DNA of 64,000 nt from a virus. Position 1 is the stretch's first letter. Each line of letters starts with the position of its first letter. The position numbers and the translations under genes were made by a program. The stretch spans positions 30,556 through 94,555 of the IMG/VR virus record IMGVR_UViG_3300016469_000571; one strand, given 5' to 3'. The notes beneath the pieces were generated by a model. The model did not search any database, was not told where the DNA came from, and saw nothing but the letters and a program-made list of their open reading frames with translations. Shown piece after piece: positions 1 to 32,900 of the stretch.

Positions 1-191
1 CTGGCTTTAGTGAATACACAGCAATACCAGCAACCAATTTAGGAGACCATACATCTTCTACAGCTAATACTATTTTTCAATACGCCCCTGGATTAACCCA
101 TGTTAAATCCAAATATGGATCTGGAGAAGTAAAACCAACAATAGATGCATCAACAGAAAGATATGCTGTTGATTTGCTGTATTCTGTTTAA
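1..191 (+). CDS. 3' end of a gene starting upstream of the window (...GFSEYTAIPATNLGDH...DLLYSV*), probably virion/fibre-associated
   Basis: Manual translation of the frame starting at nt 3 is open to TAA at 189-191; 45/62 aa are identical to the frame at 825-1013. Confidence 0.75.
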   Translation, partial: GFSEYTAIPATNLGDHTSSTANTIFQYAPGLTHVKSKYGSGEVKPTIDASTERYAVDLLYSV

Positions 192-724
192 GAAGCGTTT
201 AATCTTTGAAATTCAACAACACATTCTGCTTTTCTATCATCAGATCCAAATGCATCGACAACAACTGATAATTCATTTGATACAACAGAAATTGTAATTG
301 ACCAGCCAGTTGAATTGTCTAAATTAGTACTTGAGGTTTGATTTATAGATAAAACCCCTGCTTCTTGACTTATTAAACATTTTCTTTCAAAATAAGCTCT
401 TGTTTTTGTTCCAGTTGTATTAACTATTAAAATTTTTAATGTACACAAACATGAATCATCATCATTTATAGACAATTTACTATTATCTGGTAGTAATAAA
501 TCTATAGAGCCACCAGCAGCAGCATTTCCTGTTAATAAATAATTTTCTAAATTATTTACTTTGCTCCAATATGAACCATTACTTATATAAAGTTTTTCAC
601 TTATATTTCCATCTGATCTTAAATAAATAGATCCAGATGATTCTGAAGAGGTTGGATATCCGGTTCCAGCAGATATAGTTATTCCACTAGTTCCTATAAA
701 AAATGGATTATCTGTAGATGGTGC
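188..724 (-). pseudogene. Start-less reading frame paralogous to residues ~52-108 of the 1045..2301 protein, followed by a different C-terminus (silent cassette or gene fragment)
   Basis: The track ORF 188..475 extends without stops to 724 (APSTDNPFFIGTSGITISAG...GSIYLRSDGNISEKLYISNGSYWSKVNN, versus PSAENPFSIGTSGVTIEAG...GSLYLRYGGTINEKIYVTDGVSWQLVNN). In-frame TAA at 725-727; no in-frame ATG. Confidence 0.75.
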
Positions 725-1013
725 TTATTCATTATCATTTTCTTCATCATATACACTATCAGGATCAGATTTAAGACAATACTTATATATTGGACTGTAT
801 AATCAAACTACACAAGGATTAACAGGATTTAGTGAGTATACTGCAATACCGGCATCAAATTTAGGAGATCATACCAATTTTACAGGAAATACTAAATTTC
901 AATATACAAATGGATTAAGCTATGTAAACCCAGTATATGGATCTGGAGAAGTAAAACCAACTTTTATTGCTTTAACTGAGATTTATCCAGTAGATTTATT
1001 ATATTCAGTGTAA
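714..1013 (+). pseudogene. Start-less C-terminal fragment paralogous to the gene ending at 191
   Basis: Frame is open 627-1013 with no ATG/TTG and a GTG only as its last codon; reads VDGAYSLSF...GFSEYTAIPASNLGDH...DLLYSV*. The left boundary is approximate. Confidence 0.7.
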
Positions 1014-1044
1014 TTATTAATATAAAACTATATATTAAGGAAAT

Positions 1045-2301
1045 ATGGCTGATTCATTAACTGCAATAAATAATTTAAGAGATTCCGTAATTGCTATAGA
1101 AAAAGAGCTTGGAGTAAATCCTAAAAAAGTTTATTCTACTGTAAGAGCTAGACTGGATATCTTAGAGAATAGAATAAATAATCCAACAACACCAACACCT
1201 TCTGCCGAAAATCCTTTTTCTATTGGAACATCAGGAGTAACAATAGAGGCTGGGGAAGATGAGCCAACAACTCTTGCATTTCCAGGGTCTTTGTATTTAA
1301 GATATGGTGGAACTATTAATGAAAAAATTTATGTTACTGATGGAGTGTCATGGCAGTTAGTTAATAATTCATCTGTATCTGATGCAACAAATTTAATAAA
1401 AGGAATAATACAATTAACAAATGATTTGGGAGGTACAGCAACCTCTCCGAGCGTTGTTGGATTGCAAGGCAGATCTGTAAAAAATCAAGCTCCTAATAAT
1501 GGAGAAGTTTTGACTTGGGATTCTGTTAATTCAGAATGGATACCATCTCCAACTGCCGGATCTGTTCCGGATGCAGATAGTTCAACAAAAGGAATAATTC
1601 AACTAACAGCAGATTTAAGCGGAACAGCCGCTTCTCCAAAAGTAGTTGCTATTCAAAACAGAAATGTTAAAGATCAAGCCCCAAATAATGGAGAGCTTTT
1701 AATATGGAATTCTTTAAATAGTGAATGGACTCCTGGAGTTGTTCAAGACGCAGATGCATCTACAAAAGGATTAATACAATTATCTTTAGACATATCTGGA
1801 ACAGCAGATTCTCCTTTAGTATCTGGAATACTTGGATTTCCAATACTAGGAGAAGTATATAATGGCTATGGAATATGCTTTAATGAGCCAGATAATGAAT
1901 GGAATAATGTATTTATAGATGGATACTCTAATTTAGCTTTGTTTTCCGGAGTAGAAACTATTATAGGATCTGGATCAGAATCTTATAATAGTATAGGCGT
2001 ATTGCAAATCAATGCAGATGAATATGGTCAAAGTCCTACTTTTATATTTGAAGCTATATTTCAAGCAACATCAGGAGAAATAGCAGAGGTTAGATTATAC
2101 AATCTAACCGATGGCGCACCAGTATCAGGTTCTTTATTATCAACCTCTTCAAATATTTTTGAATATAATTCAGCAATTCTTACTTTATCAGGAAACAAAT
2201 TATATGAAGCTCAATGTAGAATAACAAATCCAACACCAGGAGTATCTGATGGTATAATTTGTGGTAATATTAATATAAGAGTTAAACTAAGAAACTTCTA
2301 A
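1045..2301 (+). CDS. Putative tail fibre / virion appendage protein with internal repeats
   Basis: AAGGA RBS; N-terminal heptad-like segment; three DAxxxxKG(I/L)IQLxxD(L/I)xGTAxSPxV repeats typical of fibre shafts. Confidence 0.65.
   Translation: MADSLTAINNLRDSVIAIEKELGVNPKKVYSTVRARLDILENRINNPTTPTPSAENPFSIGTSGVTIEAGEDEPTTLAFPGSLYLRYGGTINEKIYVTDGVSWQLVNNSSVSDATNLIKGIIQLTNDLGGTATSPSVVGLQGRSVKNQAPNNGEVLTWDSVNSEWIPSPTAGSVPDADSSTKGIIQLTADLSGTAASPKVVAIQNRNVKDQAPNNGELLIWNSLNSEWTPGVVQDADASTKGLIQLSLDISGTADSPLVSGILGFPILGEVYNGYGICFNEPDNEWNNVFIDGYSNLALFSGVETIIGSGSESYNSIGVLQINADEYGQSPTFIFEAIFQATSGEIAEVRLYNLTDGAPVSGSLLSTSSNIFEYNSAILTLSGNKLYEAQCRITNPTPGVSDGIICGNINIRVKLRNF
1381..1830 (+). repeat. Intragenic degenerate tandem repeat, ~2.5 units (starts 1381, 1570, 1747)
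   Basis: Repeated DA..KGIIQL..DL.GTA.SP.VV..Q.R.VK.QAPNNGE.L.W.S.NSEW.P; periods 189 and 177 nt. Confidence 0.9.
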
Positions 2302-2307
2302 GGTAAA

Positions 2308-3657
2308 ATGGCAAATGCTTATTTTTTAAATCATACAATAGATACAAGCACAACTAATAATTATTTTAATGTAATATGGAAATTAACAAGGGCAATGAAA
2401 TCTTCTGGTTGGACTACTGTATATCATTCAGATGGTGTTACAAAATCAAATACTGGTGATAGTTGGGGTGTTAACGTCAATCCAGCAGATGATACATATC
2501 CTGCTTTTAACTCCGCGGCTGCTTGGATCGTTATGAGAGGACCAAGCACAATAAAGCTAAACTTTACTACTGCTCCAGGCAATCTTGTACGAGGTGAAAG
2601 CATTACACAAGCTGTTAGCGGGGCTACAGGAGAATTATTAGGAATAGTTTGGGACGGGTCTACTGGCTGGGCTGTAGTAATGCCTAGAACTGGAACATTT
2701 GACGCAACAAATGTAATTACTGGTGGAATAAGTGGACAAACATTTACTCCAACATCAGTTCAAACTTATGTTCGTGAATTTATGTTTGCAAAATCAAGTG
2801 CAAACGTAACTTCAGGAACGATATATTACATTTGTGCAGAACAAACATCAGAATCAACTTCTTTATTTAGCACTCTTGCGGCTTCTGCTGGTTGTACCGC
2901 GACCATACCTCCTGGTTCTGGAGGTACAGGCAATTCTTTTCCATCTATAGGAGTTTGTTGTAAAGGTGCTGCGGGTTCTGTCTCACATAATTCTTTTTTT
3001 GTAAACAGTGGTATAGGAACATATGCTAATCTTTTAGCAGCAAATGCAACCCCAAGCTCAGGAATTTCAGCAGATGGTAGTTTTTGGTCTTTACCACAAA
3101 CTACATCAAGTCAAAGTTTAGCTTTTGGATTTGTTAGAGTTGAAGATTCTGAACCTGGAGATGTTGATCCATATGTAATATTTACCATGTCAAATACAAC
3201 ACCAACTACTTACACAAATAATACAACAGTAGGTGGAGCGGCTTTATTTACATTAGCCTCATATTTTTCATATATATCTTCAACAAACTCAATACAATTA
3301 TTCTGGGTTGGATATGTTGCTAGAGGTGTCGGTCAACCTACAAGAGAAAAGGCTGTCGCTTGGGTTGCATTAGCAACAAATTCTACTTACGTAAATACTG
3401 GGGTTAATACAAAACTATCTAACTATCCTGGAGCTGATTCTGTAACTCCTTATTTAAGGGAGTTTCCTTTATTAATTTCAAATAGAACCACAGAGGTTTG
3501 GCATAAAGGAAGACCAAGATGGTATTTTTACAGTACTGTTGGCGCTCATATGGATACATTAGATAGTAAAAGATTTGTTGTTATTTCTGCTAGAAATGGA
3601 AACACAAATCCTTCTTTTTGTGTTGGACCTTGGGATGGATCAACAAACCCACTATAA
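2308..3657 (+). CDS. Hypothetical T/S/G-rich virion structural protein
   Basis: 449-aa ORF with beta-rich composition, in an operon with the fibre-like gene. Confidence 0.55.
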   Translation: MANAYFLNHTIDTSTTNNYFNVIWKLTRAMKSSGWTTVYHSDGVTKSNTGDSWGVNVNPADDTYPAFNSAAAWIVMRGPSTIKLNFTTAPGNLVRGESITQAVSGATGELLGIVWDGSTGWAVVMPRTGTFDATNVITGGISGQTFTPTSVQTYVREFMFAKSSANVTSGTIYYICAEQTSESTSLFSTLAASAGCTATIPPGSGGTGNSFPSIGVCCKGAAGSVSHNSFFVNSGIGTYANLLAANATPSSGISADGSFWSLPQTTSSQSLAFGFVRVEDSEPGDVDPYVIFTMSNTTPTTYTNNTTVGGAALFTLASYFSYISSTNSIQLFWVGYVARGVGQPTREKAVAWVALATNSTYVNTGVNTKLSNYPGADSVTPYLREFPLLISNRTTEVWHKGRPRWYFYSTVGAHMDTLDSKRFVVISARNGNTNPSFCVGPWDGSTNPL

Positions 3658-3666
3658 TAGGATAAA

Positions 3667-4032
3667 ATGGCTGAATTAGGATTATCTGGCAGTACTACAG
3701 GTCAAGGCTCAACAACATTAGCTACAGGAGATTTAGGATTCAGAGAAGGTAGCTCCACATTTAAATATCAAAGCGATGCTATTAATATTAGAGATTATTT
3801 TGATAAATATGTTATAGATCCTAAATTTTCTGTTAATATAGAAAGCGTTCCTATAAGTCAGCCAGTAACATATTTTGTAATGAGAGGGTTAGATCCAGAC
3901 TGCATTACAGTAACATATAGATTTTGGACAGTATCAGGATCTCCAGACCTAAGCGGAGCTAGCTATTCTGGTCCTAAATGTGGCGTAAGCTCATTAACAG
4001 ATATCGTTGTTGTTCATAGATATACTATTTAA
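3667..4032 (+). CDS. Hypothetical protein
   Basis: AGGA RBS; 121 aa; stop overlaps the convergent gene. Confidence 0.7.
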   Translation: MAELGLSGSTTGQGSTTLATGDLGFREGSSTFKYQSDAINIRDYFDKYVIDPKFSVNIESVPISQPVTYFVMRGLDPDCITVTYRFWTVSGSPDLSGASYSGPKCGVSSLTDIVVVHRYTI

Positions 4033-4574
4033 ATTTTTGATAAAACAGTATCGACCAACATAATTCTTTCTTGCATATTTGCTGTATTAATAGGAATATA
4101 TTTTATATTTTCAAATTCAAATAAACATTTAATCATTGCATCAATTGTAATTACACCTTCCCAAGTTAACTCTTCTCTTACTCCATCTTGGGCTAATGTT
4201 TCTTTAGCTGGTCTAACAAAAAATACAATAGAATCTTTATTATTTAAAGATTTTACATATTGTTTGTACTCTTCTGTTTCTTTTATTGTGCTTAAAATAT
4301 TTGTATGATTAGCAGTATATGCTAAACAATCAATAGATCTATCTGAAACAAAAGAGCTATGTTTTTGCTCTTCAAGTAATTGTCTAAAAAATATAGCTTC
4401 TTGAAATGAATTAGCTACATTGATATCAGTTCTTAAAGTTTTTAGATTTAATTCTCTTTCCGATAAAATAGATCTAGCAACTTCTGTAATCATTGGAAGG
4501 TTATATTTTTGAGAAATATATCTGGCTAATGTTGTTTTACCTACGCTATGACTTCCTGCTAAATAAACTTTCAT
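4029..4574 (-). CDS. P-loop kinase, AAA_28/NadR-like nucleoside or nucleotide kinase
   Basis: GSHSVGKTT Walker A, EVAR and SDRSxDxLAY motifs. Confidence 0.75.
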   Translation of the reverse strand: MKVYLAGSHSVGKTTLARYISQKYNLPMITEVARSILSERELNLKTLRTDINVANSFQEAIFFRQLLEEQKHSSFVSDRSIDCLAYTANHTNILSTIKETEEYKQYVKSLNNKDSIVFFVRPAKETLAQDGVREELTWEGVITIDAMIKCLFEFENIKYIPINTANMQERIMLVDTVLSKI

Positions 4575-9413: not shown

Positions 9414-10394
9414 TTACACTGAAACTATCTCATCATTTTCTGTTAGTTCATCAACTCTTTTCCAAATCTCTCCATTTGTAGATTTTACTAACAATAAATG
9501 ATTATTTGTAAATTTATATTTTTTACCATCTTCAAATTCTATTTCTATTACATCTTTGTATCCATTATAATGAATACCTGGAGATTTTTTTAGCCCATCT
9601 TTTGTTTGTACAAATACATCTTTTTCAAATGGAATTGTCATTTGCTGATCTATTTGTTCTATTCTTTTCCAATCTATATTTTGTTGATCCATTAAAGAAT
9701 ATAAGGAAATTGGATTAAAATTAGCATCTAATATTTCATTTTCTCCAGATTGGCAAGATGCTGTCGGCATTGGGGCTAATAATAAGCTATTTCTTAATCC
9801 ATTTTCTTTTATTTTTTGTTTTAGTGAATCCCAATTGTACATTTCTGGTTCTACTCCCCACATATCAAATTGTAATATTCCTTGAGATGCAGGGCTTCCA
9901 TCAAAAGTCTCATATTTTCCATTTTTTATAGCCAAATCACAAGATGTGTTTAGGGCACTAAAATATATTGTTTCAAATATATTTTTATTTAATTCTTTTG
10001 CATTATCAGAATCAAATGGAAATTTCATTTTTGCAAAAACATCTGCTAATCCTTGAACTCCTAAACCAATTGGTCTATGTCTAAAATTAGATTTTTTTGC
10101 GGCTTCTGTTGGATAAAATCCAATATCTATTACTTTATTTAAATTTTCAACTAGTATTTTTGTTATTTCAGATAGTTTATTGAAATTAAAATATAAATTA
10201 CCTTTCTTTCCAGAAAGGCAAGAAGGTAAAGATATTGACGCTAATGTACATACGGCAGTTTCATCTGGAGTGGATACTTCAAAAATTTCAGTACAATTAT
10301 GAACTAAAATATCATTTGCAAAAAAATTTGCAGATTCTTCGATAGTAAAATCATATACAGGTATTTCTTCTTCTAAAAATTCTATTTCTAACAT
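9414..10394 (-). CDS. nrdA: RNR class Ia alpha, part 2: intein C half 1, middle extein, intein N half 2
   Basis: ...ILVHN|CTEIFE..AVCTLAS..RPIGLGVQGLAD..GLRNSLLLAPMPTAS|CQSG...FTNNH...WKRVDEL. Confidence 0.93.
   Translation of the reverse strand: MLEIEFLEEEIPVYDFTIEESANFFANDILVHNCTEIFEVSTPDETAVCTLASISLPSCLSGKKGNLYFNFNKLSEITKILVENLNKVIDIGFYPTEAAKKSNFRHRPIGLGVQGLADVFAKMKFPFDSDNAKELNKNIFETIYFSALNTSCDLAIKNGKYETFDGSPASQGILQFDMWGVEPEMYNWDSLKQKIKENGLRNSLLLAPMPTASCQSGENEILDANFNPISLYSLMDQQNIDWKRIEQIDQQMTIPFEKDVFVQTKDGLKKSPGIHYNGYKDVIEIEFEDGKKYKFTNNHLLLVKSTNGEIWKRVDELTENDEIVSV
9417..9755 (-). mobile_element. Split intein 2, N-terminal half (113 aa)
   Basis: Cys1 after PTAS; block B TxxH (FTNNH); ends at a stop after ELTENDEIV. 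Confidence 0.9.
10296..10394 (-). mobile_element. Split intein 1, C-terminal half (33 aa)
   Basis: VYDFTIE..NFFANDILVHN followed by Cys+1; GAGGA RBS before the ATG. Confidence 0.9.
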
Positions 10395-29922: not shown

Positions 29923-32900
29923 ATATAATTTAAGAATATCCTGGAATTTGCTGGCTTAAGTATTTTTAAAAGCTTCTCCATAATAAGCTTGCTTTGAGGA
30001 TTATCTTTTAATATATTAAAAGAATCAAATATATCTAACGTAAACTCAAAAATACCTGACTTTTTGTTTATTAACAAACAAAAATCTTCAAATAAATTAT
30101 ACTCTATATCTGAATCAAGTAAATATGTAGTATACAAATCTTTTACAACAGGCAAGCTATTAACTCCTAAATAGCTTATATCTATTGATTCATTTAAATA
30201 CTTAAATGAATTTCTATATTTGTTAGACAGTCTTAAATTATCTAAAGATATATTTCCATAATTTCTTGAGCTAAAATCAGAGCCCAATGTAAAATAATTT
30301 ATTGTATCTTTAAAAGATATTTCTTTATCAAAGAAATACCCATCATAACCGTCTCCTAATATAGTAGACTCAAAATAATTATTAAAGTAAATAGAACCTT
30401 CATAACTTATTTGCGAATGTCTATAACCATCTATAAACAATAATAAATTCTCATTGCTAGAGTTAAACTTATAAGAGGCTTTTACTCTATGCCAAGAATT
30501 TTTTTCCCAAACAATTGGAGCTTTTATTGCATAAAGTTTATTGCTAGCTGTAATTTCAAAATTTAAATTGCTATTTGCATCTTTATAAATAGAGATTCTA
30601 TCTCCGTTTGTTCCTTTTGGAATATAAATTACTTTTACTTTTGTATTATTTTGAGGTAATGGTTTGCCTAGTTTTATTACTTGCTCATTTATTGTTGTTT
30701 GAGTCTTAGGCTTGTAAGATACAATAACTTGAACATTGTTATTTGGTAAGTTTTTATTCAAATAAATGGTTTTACCATCACTTGAAATTGAACCACCATC
30801 AAAATAATCTGTATTTAAAAAGTTATTTATTTTTACATATAAAACTTGTAATGCTGGATTTGTAATAACTACTTTATTAGATGATGTAGATGTTACTACT
30901 TCATTTACAGAATCTTTTCTTACATAGTCTATTGATCCACCAGAAAAATAATCAAAATCTGAGTCTAATGTTTTTACAGAAATAATTTGATCTGCTTTAG
31001 AAGATAAACTAATTAATTTTTTATTTGTTGATATTAACTCTTCTTCTATTAACGAAGTAGCATCAAAATAATATCTTGTATTAAAATCATACAAAGTATC
31101 ATAAATTGGACTTATCCAAAACTCTATTGTTCCTTCTTTTTTTGAATCCAAATAACCTAAATTGGTTATGTTTAAAGATCTATCTTTTAAATAAATAGAA
31201 TTATTAAATTCTGAGTTTACAGAATTATTTGAATAAATAATATTGTTGTCTTTTAAAGCAACATAATAATTAGCTTCATTTTCAAATGGAAACGAATTAA
31301 ATTTACTTAAAAATGTAAGATTTTTAGAAAGCTTTGTTCCTTTAATAGAATTAAAGTTTTTAGTAACCGAATCATTATCAGTTAAATATTCTCCTGTTCT
31401 TACATCAGTAAGAGCTATATTATATACAGCTAATTCGTTTATTATTGAATTACAATGATTTTGAGATAAATAGTCAGTACCTACATGAACTAACTCTCCA
31501 AAATCATAGTCAATACTTAAATAAGCTGGATAGCTAAATTCATAAAAACCTTTTCTTAATAAATATTGTTGACCTGGATAATCTAATGGTTCAAAATAAA
31601 AGAACCCATTTCCAATTCCAGATGCATTATCTACTGTTTTATAGATTTTATAAATACCATTTGTAAAACTATTTATTGGTAATGGATATCCTGTAGATAA
31701 TGGATCTAACTCTAATAAATAACCATCTACATTTGTTATTTTATAAAAACCAGCCATTGTTATAGGATCTTCTATTACAAGAGTGTCTCCTATATTACCT
31801 AGTGAAAAGTTATTGCTATAATCAACAACAGTTGTATCGTTAAACTTTTCTAAGTTAGATCCAGAACTAACTACATAACTATATTTAAGCACTGGTGTAT
31901 AATAGCTAACTTCTGGTTCAAAAATATTTTCAAACTCTGAAACTTTTATACTGCATAAAGCTTTAGTTGGATTTATACAATCTGCTAGTATTTTTACTTT
32001 ACTAACAGAAATAAATAAATTAGTTGTATTTAATGACCCATAATCATTAAATGATAGTATCTCAGATGTAGAAGAATATCCAACATAACCAAAAACTTCA
32101 ACTGTTAATGGATTTGTAAAATCTACATTTGTACCAGAAATTTCTACTTTTATTACTCTACCAGATTGTGAATTTATTGGATTATCTGTTAGTATTTCAC
32201 TATCGTATGTGTTTCCTAGTATTGTTGAATTGCTTGAGCTAATAAGTGTATTGTTAAGCAACAACTTATAAATCTCTACGTCAGAAATAGATGTAGGTCT
32301 TGGAAGTTGAGTTTTTATTATATTAGATAAATTATCAGACCATTGATAATATTTTGCTTTTACTACTTCATGATTTAATCCAAGACTTGTCGCAAACAAC
32401 AATTCATTTGAATTTAATCCATTTTTAATGGTTATTGTATTTTTACTTAGTTCATAATCAGATATTTCTGCTCTAGGACTTCGCAATTCAGTTTCTTCTG
32501 TAGAATAAATAAAGAATTCTACACCAGAGCTAGAAACATTTATTGTAGAATCTAATTCTAATTGATTAACATTAACAGATATTATTGTATAATAATCTTC
32601 TAAACCAGAATAATTAATTCTAATTAAATCACCAACAGAAACTATATTTGTAAAATCATTTGTTGATAACACAATATTTGTATTATTTAATGTAAGATCA
32701 TTGTCTGTAAAATAATAAGATAATTTATAAAAGTAATTATTTGTGTTTAAATAATATCTTCCATATCCATCAAAATTAGTTTGATTTACAGAGAATTCTA
32801 GATTTGTTAATGAAACCGGCATATTTGTATCAAGAGTTAAATCTTGACCAGATACAGATAGTATTTGATATCCATTTTCATTAAATAAATCATTTTTAAT

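Follow-up and report, generated by a model that had tools for sequence, protein, structure and literature searches.

Two open reading frames without usable starts lie back to back near position 720 of a viral sequence, and they are probably remnants of a crossover that recently joined two different versions of a highly variable tail-fibre gene cluster, not parts of a programmed receptor switch. The sequence analysed, referred to below as the window, is 64,000 nucleotides long and corresponds to positions 30,556 to 94,555 of the virus record IMGVR_UViG_3300016469_000571.

From stop to stop, the leftward frame covers 188-724 on the minus strand (178 codons) and the rightward frame 627-1013 on the plus strand (128 codons), and neither offers an ATG, GTG or TTG that would yield a long product. 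An earlier, sequence-only reading had described two start-less frames diverging from one point, and these are present (188-724 on the minus strand, about 708-1013 on the plus strand). In what follows, b' is the leftward fragment and a2 the rightward one, and a1 denotes the 101 C-terminal codons of the upstream gene, gene A, that match a2; coordinates are collected in Table 1. Homology of a2 sets in at about 714-716, not at 627, the frame being merely open further upstream. The same reading had compared the rightward frame with the in-window end of the upstream gene, where 45 of 62 residues (73%) are indeed identical. Once upstream DNA was added, the a1 tip could be followed from 114 nt before the window to position 191, and a1 and a2 aligned over 101 codons with 65% amino-acid identity and 214 of 306 identical nucleotides (70%). 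The repeat search returned the pair as direct repeat D3 (298 nt, 71%), in which the longest exact match is 27 nt. When a2 was compared with 1.8 billion representatives, the sole match was gene A's own cluster.

Table 1. Features of the fibre cluster around the junction, in window coordinates.
Feature	Position	Strand	Description
Fibre gene A, 3' end	1-191	+	Whole gene 640 aa, start 1731 nt before the window
b'	188-724	-	Residues 51-228 of the fibre-associated B' family (225-231 aa); start-less, otherwise intact
a2	708-1013	+	Second, start-less copy of the 101 C-terminal codons of a fibre gene of A type
Putative recombination joint	716-721		AGATGG, the sole stretch fitting both contexts
Spacer	1014-1044	+	31 nt, AAGGA just before the ATG of gene B
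Gene B, N-terminal module (residues 1-108)	1045-1368	+	B' type
Putative second, older joint inside gene B	1369-1380	+	Passage from B'-type sequence to DUF5907 fibre body
Gene B, body	1381-2301	+	Three DUF5907 repeats and a C-terminal domain
449-aa and 121-aa genes	2308-4032	+	Follow gene B; order common to L041 and L042
AAA_28 kinase-like gene	4029-4574	-	Synteny with L002 resumes exactly at its stop codon

The leftward fragment lacks only the first 50 codons of the B' family, a TAA standing directly upstream of it at 725-727, and its last 178 codons are whole. Eleven full-length homologues of b' were found (E down to 4e-51), and in the end-to-end alignment with this family every invariant residue is kept in b'. 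Its reported resemblance to the protein encoded from 1045, gene B, was borne out: residues 52-108 are identical at 31 of 57 positions (E 9e-18), with divergence beyond, and codons 51-108 show 54% amino-acid and 65% nucleotide identity. The last 120 codons of b' have no relationship to B, their orthologue being the short gene found in relatives. The overlapping stops of b' and gene A (TTAA, 188-191) are real, and the same 4-nt overlap occurs in a close relative, L002. On the other side, the succession of a2 stop, spacer and gene B start looks like a native co-directional gene boundary. A scan for promoters and terminators gave no enrichment over shuffled sequences. Presumably, b' and a2 are silent, unexpressed remnants, and in annotation neither frame should be called as a gene.

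Both flanking genes encode DUF5907-repeat fibres with PHROG tail-protein matches. PF19264 (DUF5907) exceeds its curated cut-off in gene A over five stretches (E 6.5e-25) and in gene B over three (E 3.1e-15). Gene A also matches phrog_8780, a minor tail protein, and is 62% identical to gene A of L002. Residues 1-105 of gene B are 66% identical to the L002 short gene, and this N-terminal module is a diverged paralogue of the missing and overlapping parts of b'. Six orthologues of the gene B body start with MT(N/Y)YPNNLDD..PIAT, as gene A does, and come without B residues 1-108; as judged from these alignments, gene B too is chimeric. B' was modelled with modest confidence (pLDDT 66.6), and the best PDB match of the model, to tail fibre gp42 of Klebsiella phage Kp9, is weak (E 5e-4, TM 0.28), so that a fibre-like role of B' is only loosely supported by this model.

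At the junction itself, the window follows the reverse complement of the L002 short gene up to position 721, with 21 of 21 identical bases at 701-721, and from position 716 it follows the gene A tip, a1. Similarity to the two contexts ends at one point, with 6 nt shared, and neither pairwise nor three-way junction comparison found similarity past the joint on either side. At the level of sequence comparison, one gene context gives way abruptly to another, unrelated one over a 6-nt microhomology. Relative to L002, synteny is broken at codon 51 of the short gene and regained at the kinase stop.

The phage carrying this cluster is large, uncultured and very AT-rich. In L002, gene A converges on a complete 228-aa short gene, the start of which overlaps the end of the kinase gene that comes next; a2, gene B and the 449-aa and 121-aa genes are all absent from the L002 record. 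Two more distant relatives, L041 and L042, carry B-like, 449-aa and 121-aa genes in this order on one strand, preceded in L041 by another fibre gene. Gene content and orientation of the cluster, which is bounded by the methionine aminopeptidase gene and the 401-aa gene, are different in every relative examined. The a1 and a2 tips are 65% identical to each other and only 56% and 53% identical to the L002 tip, a relationship that would fit two related parental phages. Identities to L002 on the left and right arms were 71%, 62%, 76% and 70%, and gave no sign of which arm came from which parent.

Searches for further relatives returned little. Neither the B protein alone nor the 449-aa protein alone matched any viral contig. 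The B' family alignment found only L002 among viral contigs, nothing among genome contigs and distant domain-level relatives only among metagenome contigs; an alignment of the 401-aa neighbour again found only L002. A tblastn search of cultured phages with the L002 short gene and the 449-aa protein gave no match, and an exact 26-nt word of b' occurred in no other viral contig. Intergenic DNA of 24 related loci yielded no clear second example of such gene fragments, with crude gene calls that fail on GC-rich loci.

The probable explanation of these observations is that two versions of a hypervariable tail-fibre cluster recombined recently, by an illegitimate event at the level of microhomology. 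Version 1 would be L002-like, with fibre gene A converging on the 228-aa B' gene and then the kinase gene. Version 2 would be arranged as in L041 and L042: a fibre gene, A2, whose tip differs from that of A, and after it on the same strand B and the 449-aa and 121-aa genes. One unequal crossover, joining B' at codon 51 (read on the opposite strand) to A2 at about codon 565, would produce exactly the arrangement seen now: gene A would be complete, followed by 178 C-terminal codons of B' pointing leftward and 101 C-terminal codons of A2 pointing rightward, and then by the intact B-449-121 series. The same outcome would follow if a patch of about 820 bp (a1 plus b') had been inserted into A2, a variant that calls for two crossovers, one homologous and within A, the other illegitimate. 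Gene B would stem from an older event of the same kind, in which a fibre body, normally starting like A, acquired an N-terminal module of the B' type. The exact version-2 allele, A2 directly before the chimeric B, was found in no genome, and we infer that parent, as we do the parental genomes and the order of events in general.

The sequence-only reading had also considered a simple scar, or an inversion breakpoint whose partner lay left of the window. The scar is now favoured by the abrupt 6-nt joint, the parental orders in relatives and the age of the paralogues; no second junction exists as the expected partner to the left, where the full-length gene A lies.

The same reading had taken the many synonymous differences as a sign that both frames had recently been under selection, and the codon comparison agrees. 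Between a1 and a2, 27 codons differ by synonymous changes only and 35 by non-synonymous ones (dS 1.03, dN/dS 0.26), with a clear excess of third-position and synonymous change; dS between b' and B is 0.77. The paralogues had separated long before they came to lie next to each other. With neutral substitution, the probability of both frames remaining open is already below 0.05 at about 0.057 substitutions per site. Although the paralogues are old (dS about 0.8-1.0, under purifying selection), the frames are open, and they would therefore have been joined recently; the fragments look healthy because each probably belonged to a working gene until recently.

Mosaicism of phage genomes by illegitimate recombination is said to have been described by Hendrix and Hatfull, and mosaics of tail-fibre genes reportedly by Sandmeier, Iida and Arber. 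The junction is likely to be a mosaic joint of this ordinary kind. It shares with such joints an abrupt change of relatedness, few shared bases, a place in host-range genes, truncated remnants and alternative modules at the locus. It differs in that the remnants are fully open and stand head to head on opposite strands, and the joint would therefore keep both parental alleles almost whole; its setting, a large, uncultured, very AT-rich phage with DUF5907 fibres, is different too. Another likeness is to cdiA, rhs and similar polymorphic genes, which have orphan, displaced C-terminal modules downstream. Like these orphans, a2 is a start-less 3' module with a full-length paralogue upstream in the same orientation, and its homology begins at a module boundary; by analogy, a2 could be recaptured by recombination between the a1/a2 direct repeats, given their 27-nt exact match. 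Unlike them, the present locus has no toxin or immunity gene, its hitchhiker b' is a truncated structural gene, and there is no conserved boundary motif of the VENN or PxxxxDPxGL type.

Among the alternatives, an assembly or amplification chimera would have joined co-occurring strains with versions 1 and 2, so that the fragments would exist together in no one genome. The record is a metagenome-assembled fragment and the two sides of the joint resemble two alleles of one locus; whole-genome amplification is known to make inverted chimeras at short microhomologies. Nevertheless, a chimera is unlikely: the 6 nt shared at the joint are far below assembler word sizes, the natural places for a mis-join (the 27-nt exact a1/a2 match and the DUF5907 repeats) lie elsewhere, and both arms are co-linear and complete, as in a viable recombinant.

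A programmed inversion, in which segment 724-1195 flips between inverted homologous arms formed by codons 51-108 of b' and of B, is quite improbable. The segment would carry the first 50 codons of B with its ribosome-binding site, perhaps also a promoter, and would join one N-terminal anchor to either the long B body or the short b' tip, under a recombinase encoded in the unsequenced 78% of the genome. In its favour, b' and B are inverted to each other with 174 nt of homology starting exactly at the b' start, both fragments are intact, and a flip would restore a complete 228-aa gene like those of the B' family. The arms, however, are only 65% identical. The inverted match between 698-724 and 1195-1221 to which attention had been drawn is present (20 of 27) but is not special: it lies inside an inverted coding homology with 113 of 174 positions matching, where at least 20 matches are reached by 47 of the 148 windows of 27 nt and the longest exact inverted match is 10 nt, and it is absent from the 25 longest inverted repeats of the 8-kb neighbourhood. 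That neighbourhood has no strong inverted repeats, and the repeat search found no family of repeated short sites around the junction.

Nor was a candidate enzyme found. That no recombinase is seen in the window extends to the whole 94.5-kb record, about 22% of a genome estimated at roughly 430 kb, for serine, tyrosine, large-serine and IS110-type enzymes: PF00239 (Resolvase) had no match there at E<=1, and PF00589 (Phage_integrase), Recombinase and IS110 domains had none either. In four related records (94-252 kb, about 800 kb in total), Resolvase and Phage_integrase gave no match over the cut-off. The remainder of the genome leaves room for such an enzyme. A further point against inversion is that a2 would have no role in it, being direct to A and start-less in either state; L002 has a plain intact short gene at this place, and a microhomology of 6 nt between two unrelated genes suffices to explain the joint.

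Mu G/Gin, P1 C/Cin, p15B Min and e14 P/Pin likewise place alternative fibre C-terminal parts on opposite strands at a host-range locus. They have an adjacent serine invertase and near-perfect inverted crossover sites (26-34 bp) where the constant part borders the variable one, whereas here no invertase was found and the arms are those of diverged genes; the would-be constant 5' part also lies inside the flipped segment, not outside it, and a2 is in direct, not inverted, orientation to a1. In Mu and SfMu the repeats are 34 bp long, and one altered base beside the core is suspected to prevent inversion (PMC4406740). With no invertase found in the 94.5-kb record or the four related ones, no near-perfect sites and the wrong geometry, membership of the Mu type was rejected, as was that of the shufflons (Rci recombinase, sfx sites), for which these records gave no tyrosine recombinase and the surroundings of the junction no repeated short sites. 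Vsa switching in Mycoplasma pulmonis uses conserved 34-bp vrs sites and the HvsR recombinase, and sap switching in Campylobacter fetus uses long, nearly identical 5' regions and RecA. If the locus were a switch, its geometry would resemble vsa or sap more than Mu G, by analogy, with opposite cassettes that lack a 5' part or promoter flanking a segment with expression signals; it differs in having neither vrs-type nor sap-type sites.

The suggestion that the fragments are silent alternative C-termini for an inversion or shufflon-like switch was thus not upheld, with no conserved crossover site, arms of 65% identity, no recombinase in the 94.5-kb record and a2 direct to A. That a large virulent phage maintains them as silent cassettes for switching its host range, with a recombinase from the unsequenced part of the genome inverting 724-1195 and the a1/a2 repeats allowing deletional change of the A tip, is very unlikely, even though a maintained cassette would also look like two open start-less frames side by side. 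Were such a switch active, the mechanism would be notable and new: a fibre switch of the expression-site type, of which no description in phages is known.

Duplication in place, in which copies of A's tip and of the 5' part of B arose within the genome, one of them inverted, and then diverged where they lie, would explain why each fragment is paralogous to a flanking gene and why a1 and a2 are mutually closest. It was rejected as strongly disfavoured and is highly improbable: dS values of about 1.0 and 0.8 and 30-35% nucleotide differences stand against it, because a start-less copy drifting for that long would have gained stops, and B was not the source of b', whose last 120 codons are of other descent. 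A diversity-generating retroelement with a2 as template repeat for a variable tip of gene A, to which a non-coding-looking copy of a fibre C-terminal end close downstream might point, is effectively refuted by the substitution spectrum, with a1/a2 mismatches spread across all bases and not tied to adenine, 30% divergence over 306 nt in a codon-position pattern and no reverse transcriptase (RVT_1) match in the record.

Read as a scar of mosaic recombination, the junction would provide one more example of module exchange in DUF5907 fibres, with no general view changed by it. With two parental alleles almost whole on either side of a 6-nt joint, it would offer a base-resolved snapshot of the reshuffling of receptor-binding genes in large uncultured phages.

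The two start-less frames lie within a fibre gene cluster of a single, linear IMG/VR virus record of 94,555 bp (bases 30556-94555 form the window), which CheckV estimates to be ~22% of the complete genome and whose GC content is 25-36%. Both frames described in the sequence-only reading were confirmed. The leftward frame, b', has a TAA directly upstream (725-727) and no ATG, and its first TTG would yield only 95 aa. The piece a2 of the rightward frame is, as had been claimed, a paralogue of the end of the fibre gene A: once upstream DNA is included, it matches the last 101 codons of A (a1) with 65% amino acid identity and 214/306 identical nucleotides, and further upstream the similarity ends. 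The stop codon of A overlaps that of b' within TTAA. DUF5907 repeats (PF19264) were detected in A (E = 6.5e-25) and in gene B (E = 3.1e-15), and both match PHROG tail-protein families.

Features of the fibre gene cluster and of related loci (window coordinates unless stated)
Feature	Position	Strand	Remarks
401-aa gene	upstream of window, before gene A	minus	
Gene A	1731 nt before window to window base 191	plus	640 aa, N-terminus MSNYPNNLDD
b', start-less frame	188-724	minus	178 codons, stop to stop
Rightward start-less frame	627-1013	plus	128 codons, usable start absent
a2	708-1013	plus	paralogue of a1
Small antisense frame	697-750	minus	four ATGs (750, 747, 738, 732)
Gene B	1045-2301	plus	418 aa
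Switch inside gene B	1369-1380		codons 108-112
449-aa gene	2308-3657		Pfam or PHROG family none
GIY-YIG-like genes	genome 12746-16425		three paralogues, ~14-18 kb before window
GIY-YIG-like candidate	genome 19882-20901		fourth gene
Tandem 449 paralogues	L053 8774-13293		3-5 copies
Tandem 449 paralogues	L055 4544-11695		3-5 copies
Tandem 449 paralogues	L056 8316-13345		3-5 copies
Tandem 449 paralogues	L059 3357-11287		3-5 copies

The reported match of b' to gene B was recovered over B residues 52-108 (31/57 identical, E = 9e-18), beyond which the two are unrelated. Eleven full-length homologues of b' were found (225-231 aa, E = 4e-51 to 1e-34); it aligns end to end with them from their residue 51 and keeps all family-invariant residues. 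The module missing from b', 50 residues long (MAD...ELG.NPK..Y..VRARLDILENRINNP), also begins gene B. A structure model of this short-gene family, B', of modest confidence (pLDDT 66.6), predicts a pair of helices at the N-terminus, together with a small beta domain and a beta sandwich; its best PDB match, a weak one, is a Klebsiella phage tail fibre.

Six orthologues of the repeats and C-terminal domain of B start with MT(N/Y)YPNNLDD..PIAT, like gene A. The first 108 residues of B itself are of B' type and show 66% identity to the short gene of L002, a close relative. Gene B is a natural chimera, a B'-type N-terminal module on a DUF5907 fibre body. The module by which the short protein, lost here, was attached may now serve B, whose body possibly occupies that protein's site on the virion.

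L002, the one close relative compared, is a 94-kb IMG/VR record whose neighbouring proteins are 70-76% identical to those of the window. Its order is the 401-aa gene, A, a complete 228-aa short gene, a kinase-like gene and a methionine aminopeptidase. The short gene runs towards A, and their stops overlap by 4 nt, as do those of A and b'; a2, the B body, the 449-aa gene and the 121-aa gene are all absent from its 94 kb. The window tracks the L002 short gene down to codon 51 (bases 701-721 match 21/21) and rejoins L002 exactly at the kinase stop, ~4029-4032. There the stops of the 121-aa and kinase-like genes overlap in TTTAAA, mirroring the TTAA of A/b'; at the equivalent point in L002 the kinase stop is overlapped by the start of the short gene. 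Two more distant loci, L041 and L042, carry a B-like gene, 449 and 121, in this order and all on the same strand; in L041 a further fibre gene stands before them. The window shows this order from a2 rightwards.

Three-way comparison showed that up to 721 the window follows the L002 short gene (reverse complement), and from 716 on it follows a1. AGATGG is the only stretch fitting both contexts, and past the joint neither side shows similarity to the context of the other. The apparent overlap of protein homologies over 'LSVDGA' and 'APSTDN' is due to this short shared stretch. To judge from the bases at the joint, such an abrupt switch bears the signature of an illegitimate crossover at microhomology. 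Together with the parental-type gene orders in relatives, it supports the view, allowed for in the sequence-only reading, that the frames are a scar. Less probably, a chimeric molecule in the sequencing library produced the joint. Long shared words, such as the 27-nt exact match between a1 and a2 or the DUF5907 repeats, are the places where one would expect an assembler to mis-join; the joint shares just six bases.

At the joint, a small antisense frame enters b' one base out of frame and contains T_TTT_TTA (703-697), phased so that a -1 slip would lead into b'. It has no upstream Shine-Dalgarno sequence, the T-run encodes the conserved NPFFIG of the family, and the motif is most likely due to chance.

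The paralogues are old (a1 versus a2, dS 1.03 and dN/dS 0.26; b' versus B, dS 0.77 and dN/dS 0.52), with an excess of third-position changes. Stops arise from 6-8% of all single substitutions in these AT-rich frames, and the probability that neither start-less frame acquires a stop is 0.5 once 0.013 neutral substitutions per site have accumulated and <0.05 once there are 0.057. Old divergence with frames still open implies that the copies diverged inside working genes and were juxtaposed recently; duplication in place followed by drift is ruled out on the same grounds. The signal of recent selection noted earlier is accounted for in this way, and the fragments need have no current function. 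With each other a1 and a2 share 65% identity, against 56% and 53% with the L002 tip, consistent with descent from two related parental phages.

The most likely mechanism is one unequal crossover between co-infecting relatives, which would give the present map in a single step. The first parent would have carried A converging on the short gene, and the second a fibre gene A2, with a2 as its tip, followed by B, 449 and 121. A crossover, which we infer, from codon 51 of the short gene to ~codon 565 of A2 would leave a recombinant that has the complete gene A of the first parent and the B-449-121 block of the second; only codons 1-50 of the short gene and all of A2 upstream of ~codon 565 would be lost. 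Insertion of an 820-bp patch (a1 plus b') into A2 would be equivalent. The exact second parent, A2 then B-449-121, was not found among the relatives compared. Coincident contig sizes (12901, 38871 and 34735) suggest close relatives in which the short gene is complete and is accompanied by a B orthologue and a 449 homologue.

The proposal that the frames are silent alternative C-termini for a programmed, shufflon-like inversion was not borne out. The 20/27 inverted match is present, but is equalled or beaten by 47/148 27-nt windows of the arms; these (551-724 versus 1195-1368) are identical at 113/174 positions and share no exact run longer than 10 nt, whereas Mu-type systems have 34-bp repeats in which even one substitution close to the core may be critical (PMC4406740). 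The surrounding 8 kb hold no inverted repeats of note. The fragment a2 lies in direct orientation to A and would lack a start after any single inversion. The earlier failure to see a recombinase extends to the whole record (94,555 bp, ~22% of the genome), which lacks Resolvase, Phage_integrase, Recombinase and IS110 domains; four related records (94-252 kb) have no Resolvase or Phage_integrase over cut-off. A diversity-generating retroelement (DGR) is excluded by the a1/a2 substitution spectrum and the absence of a reverse transcriptase from the record.

Elsewhere in the record, three paralogous genes beginning MFYIY.F.N..N.K.YIGKT have a GIY-YIG-like look; there is also a fourth candidate, and the presence of these genes suggests active homing endonucleases in the phage.

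In every relative (L041, L046, L047, L052, L053 and L056, where it lies near position 10000), the cluster from the aminopeptidase to the 401-aa (FAD-type) gene has its own gene number, strand arrangement and set of modules. Several of these loci have 2-4 genes with the same N-terminal module, or tandem 449 paralogues; homologues of the 449-aa protein number >150, and many of them come from contigs of 200-500 kb. The start-less pair is a well-resolved but unremarkable outcome of modules being shuffled among phage host-range genes.
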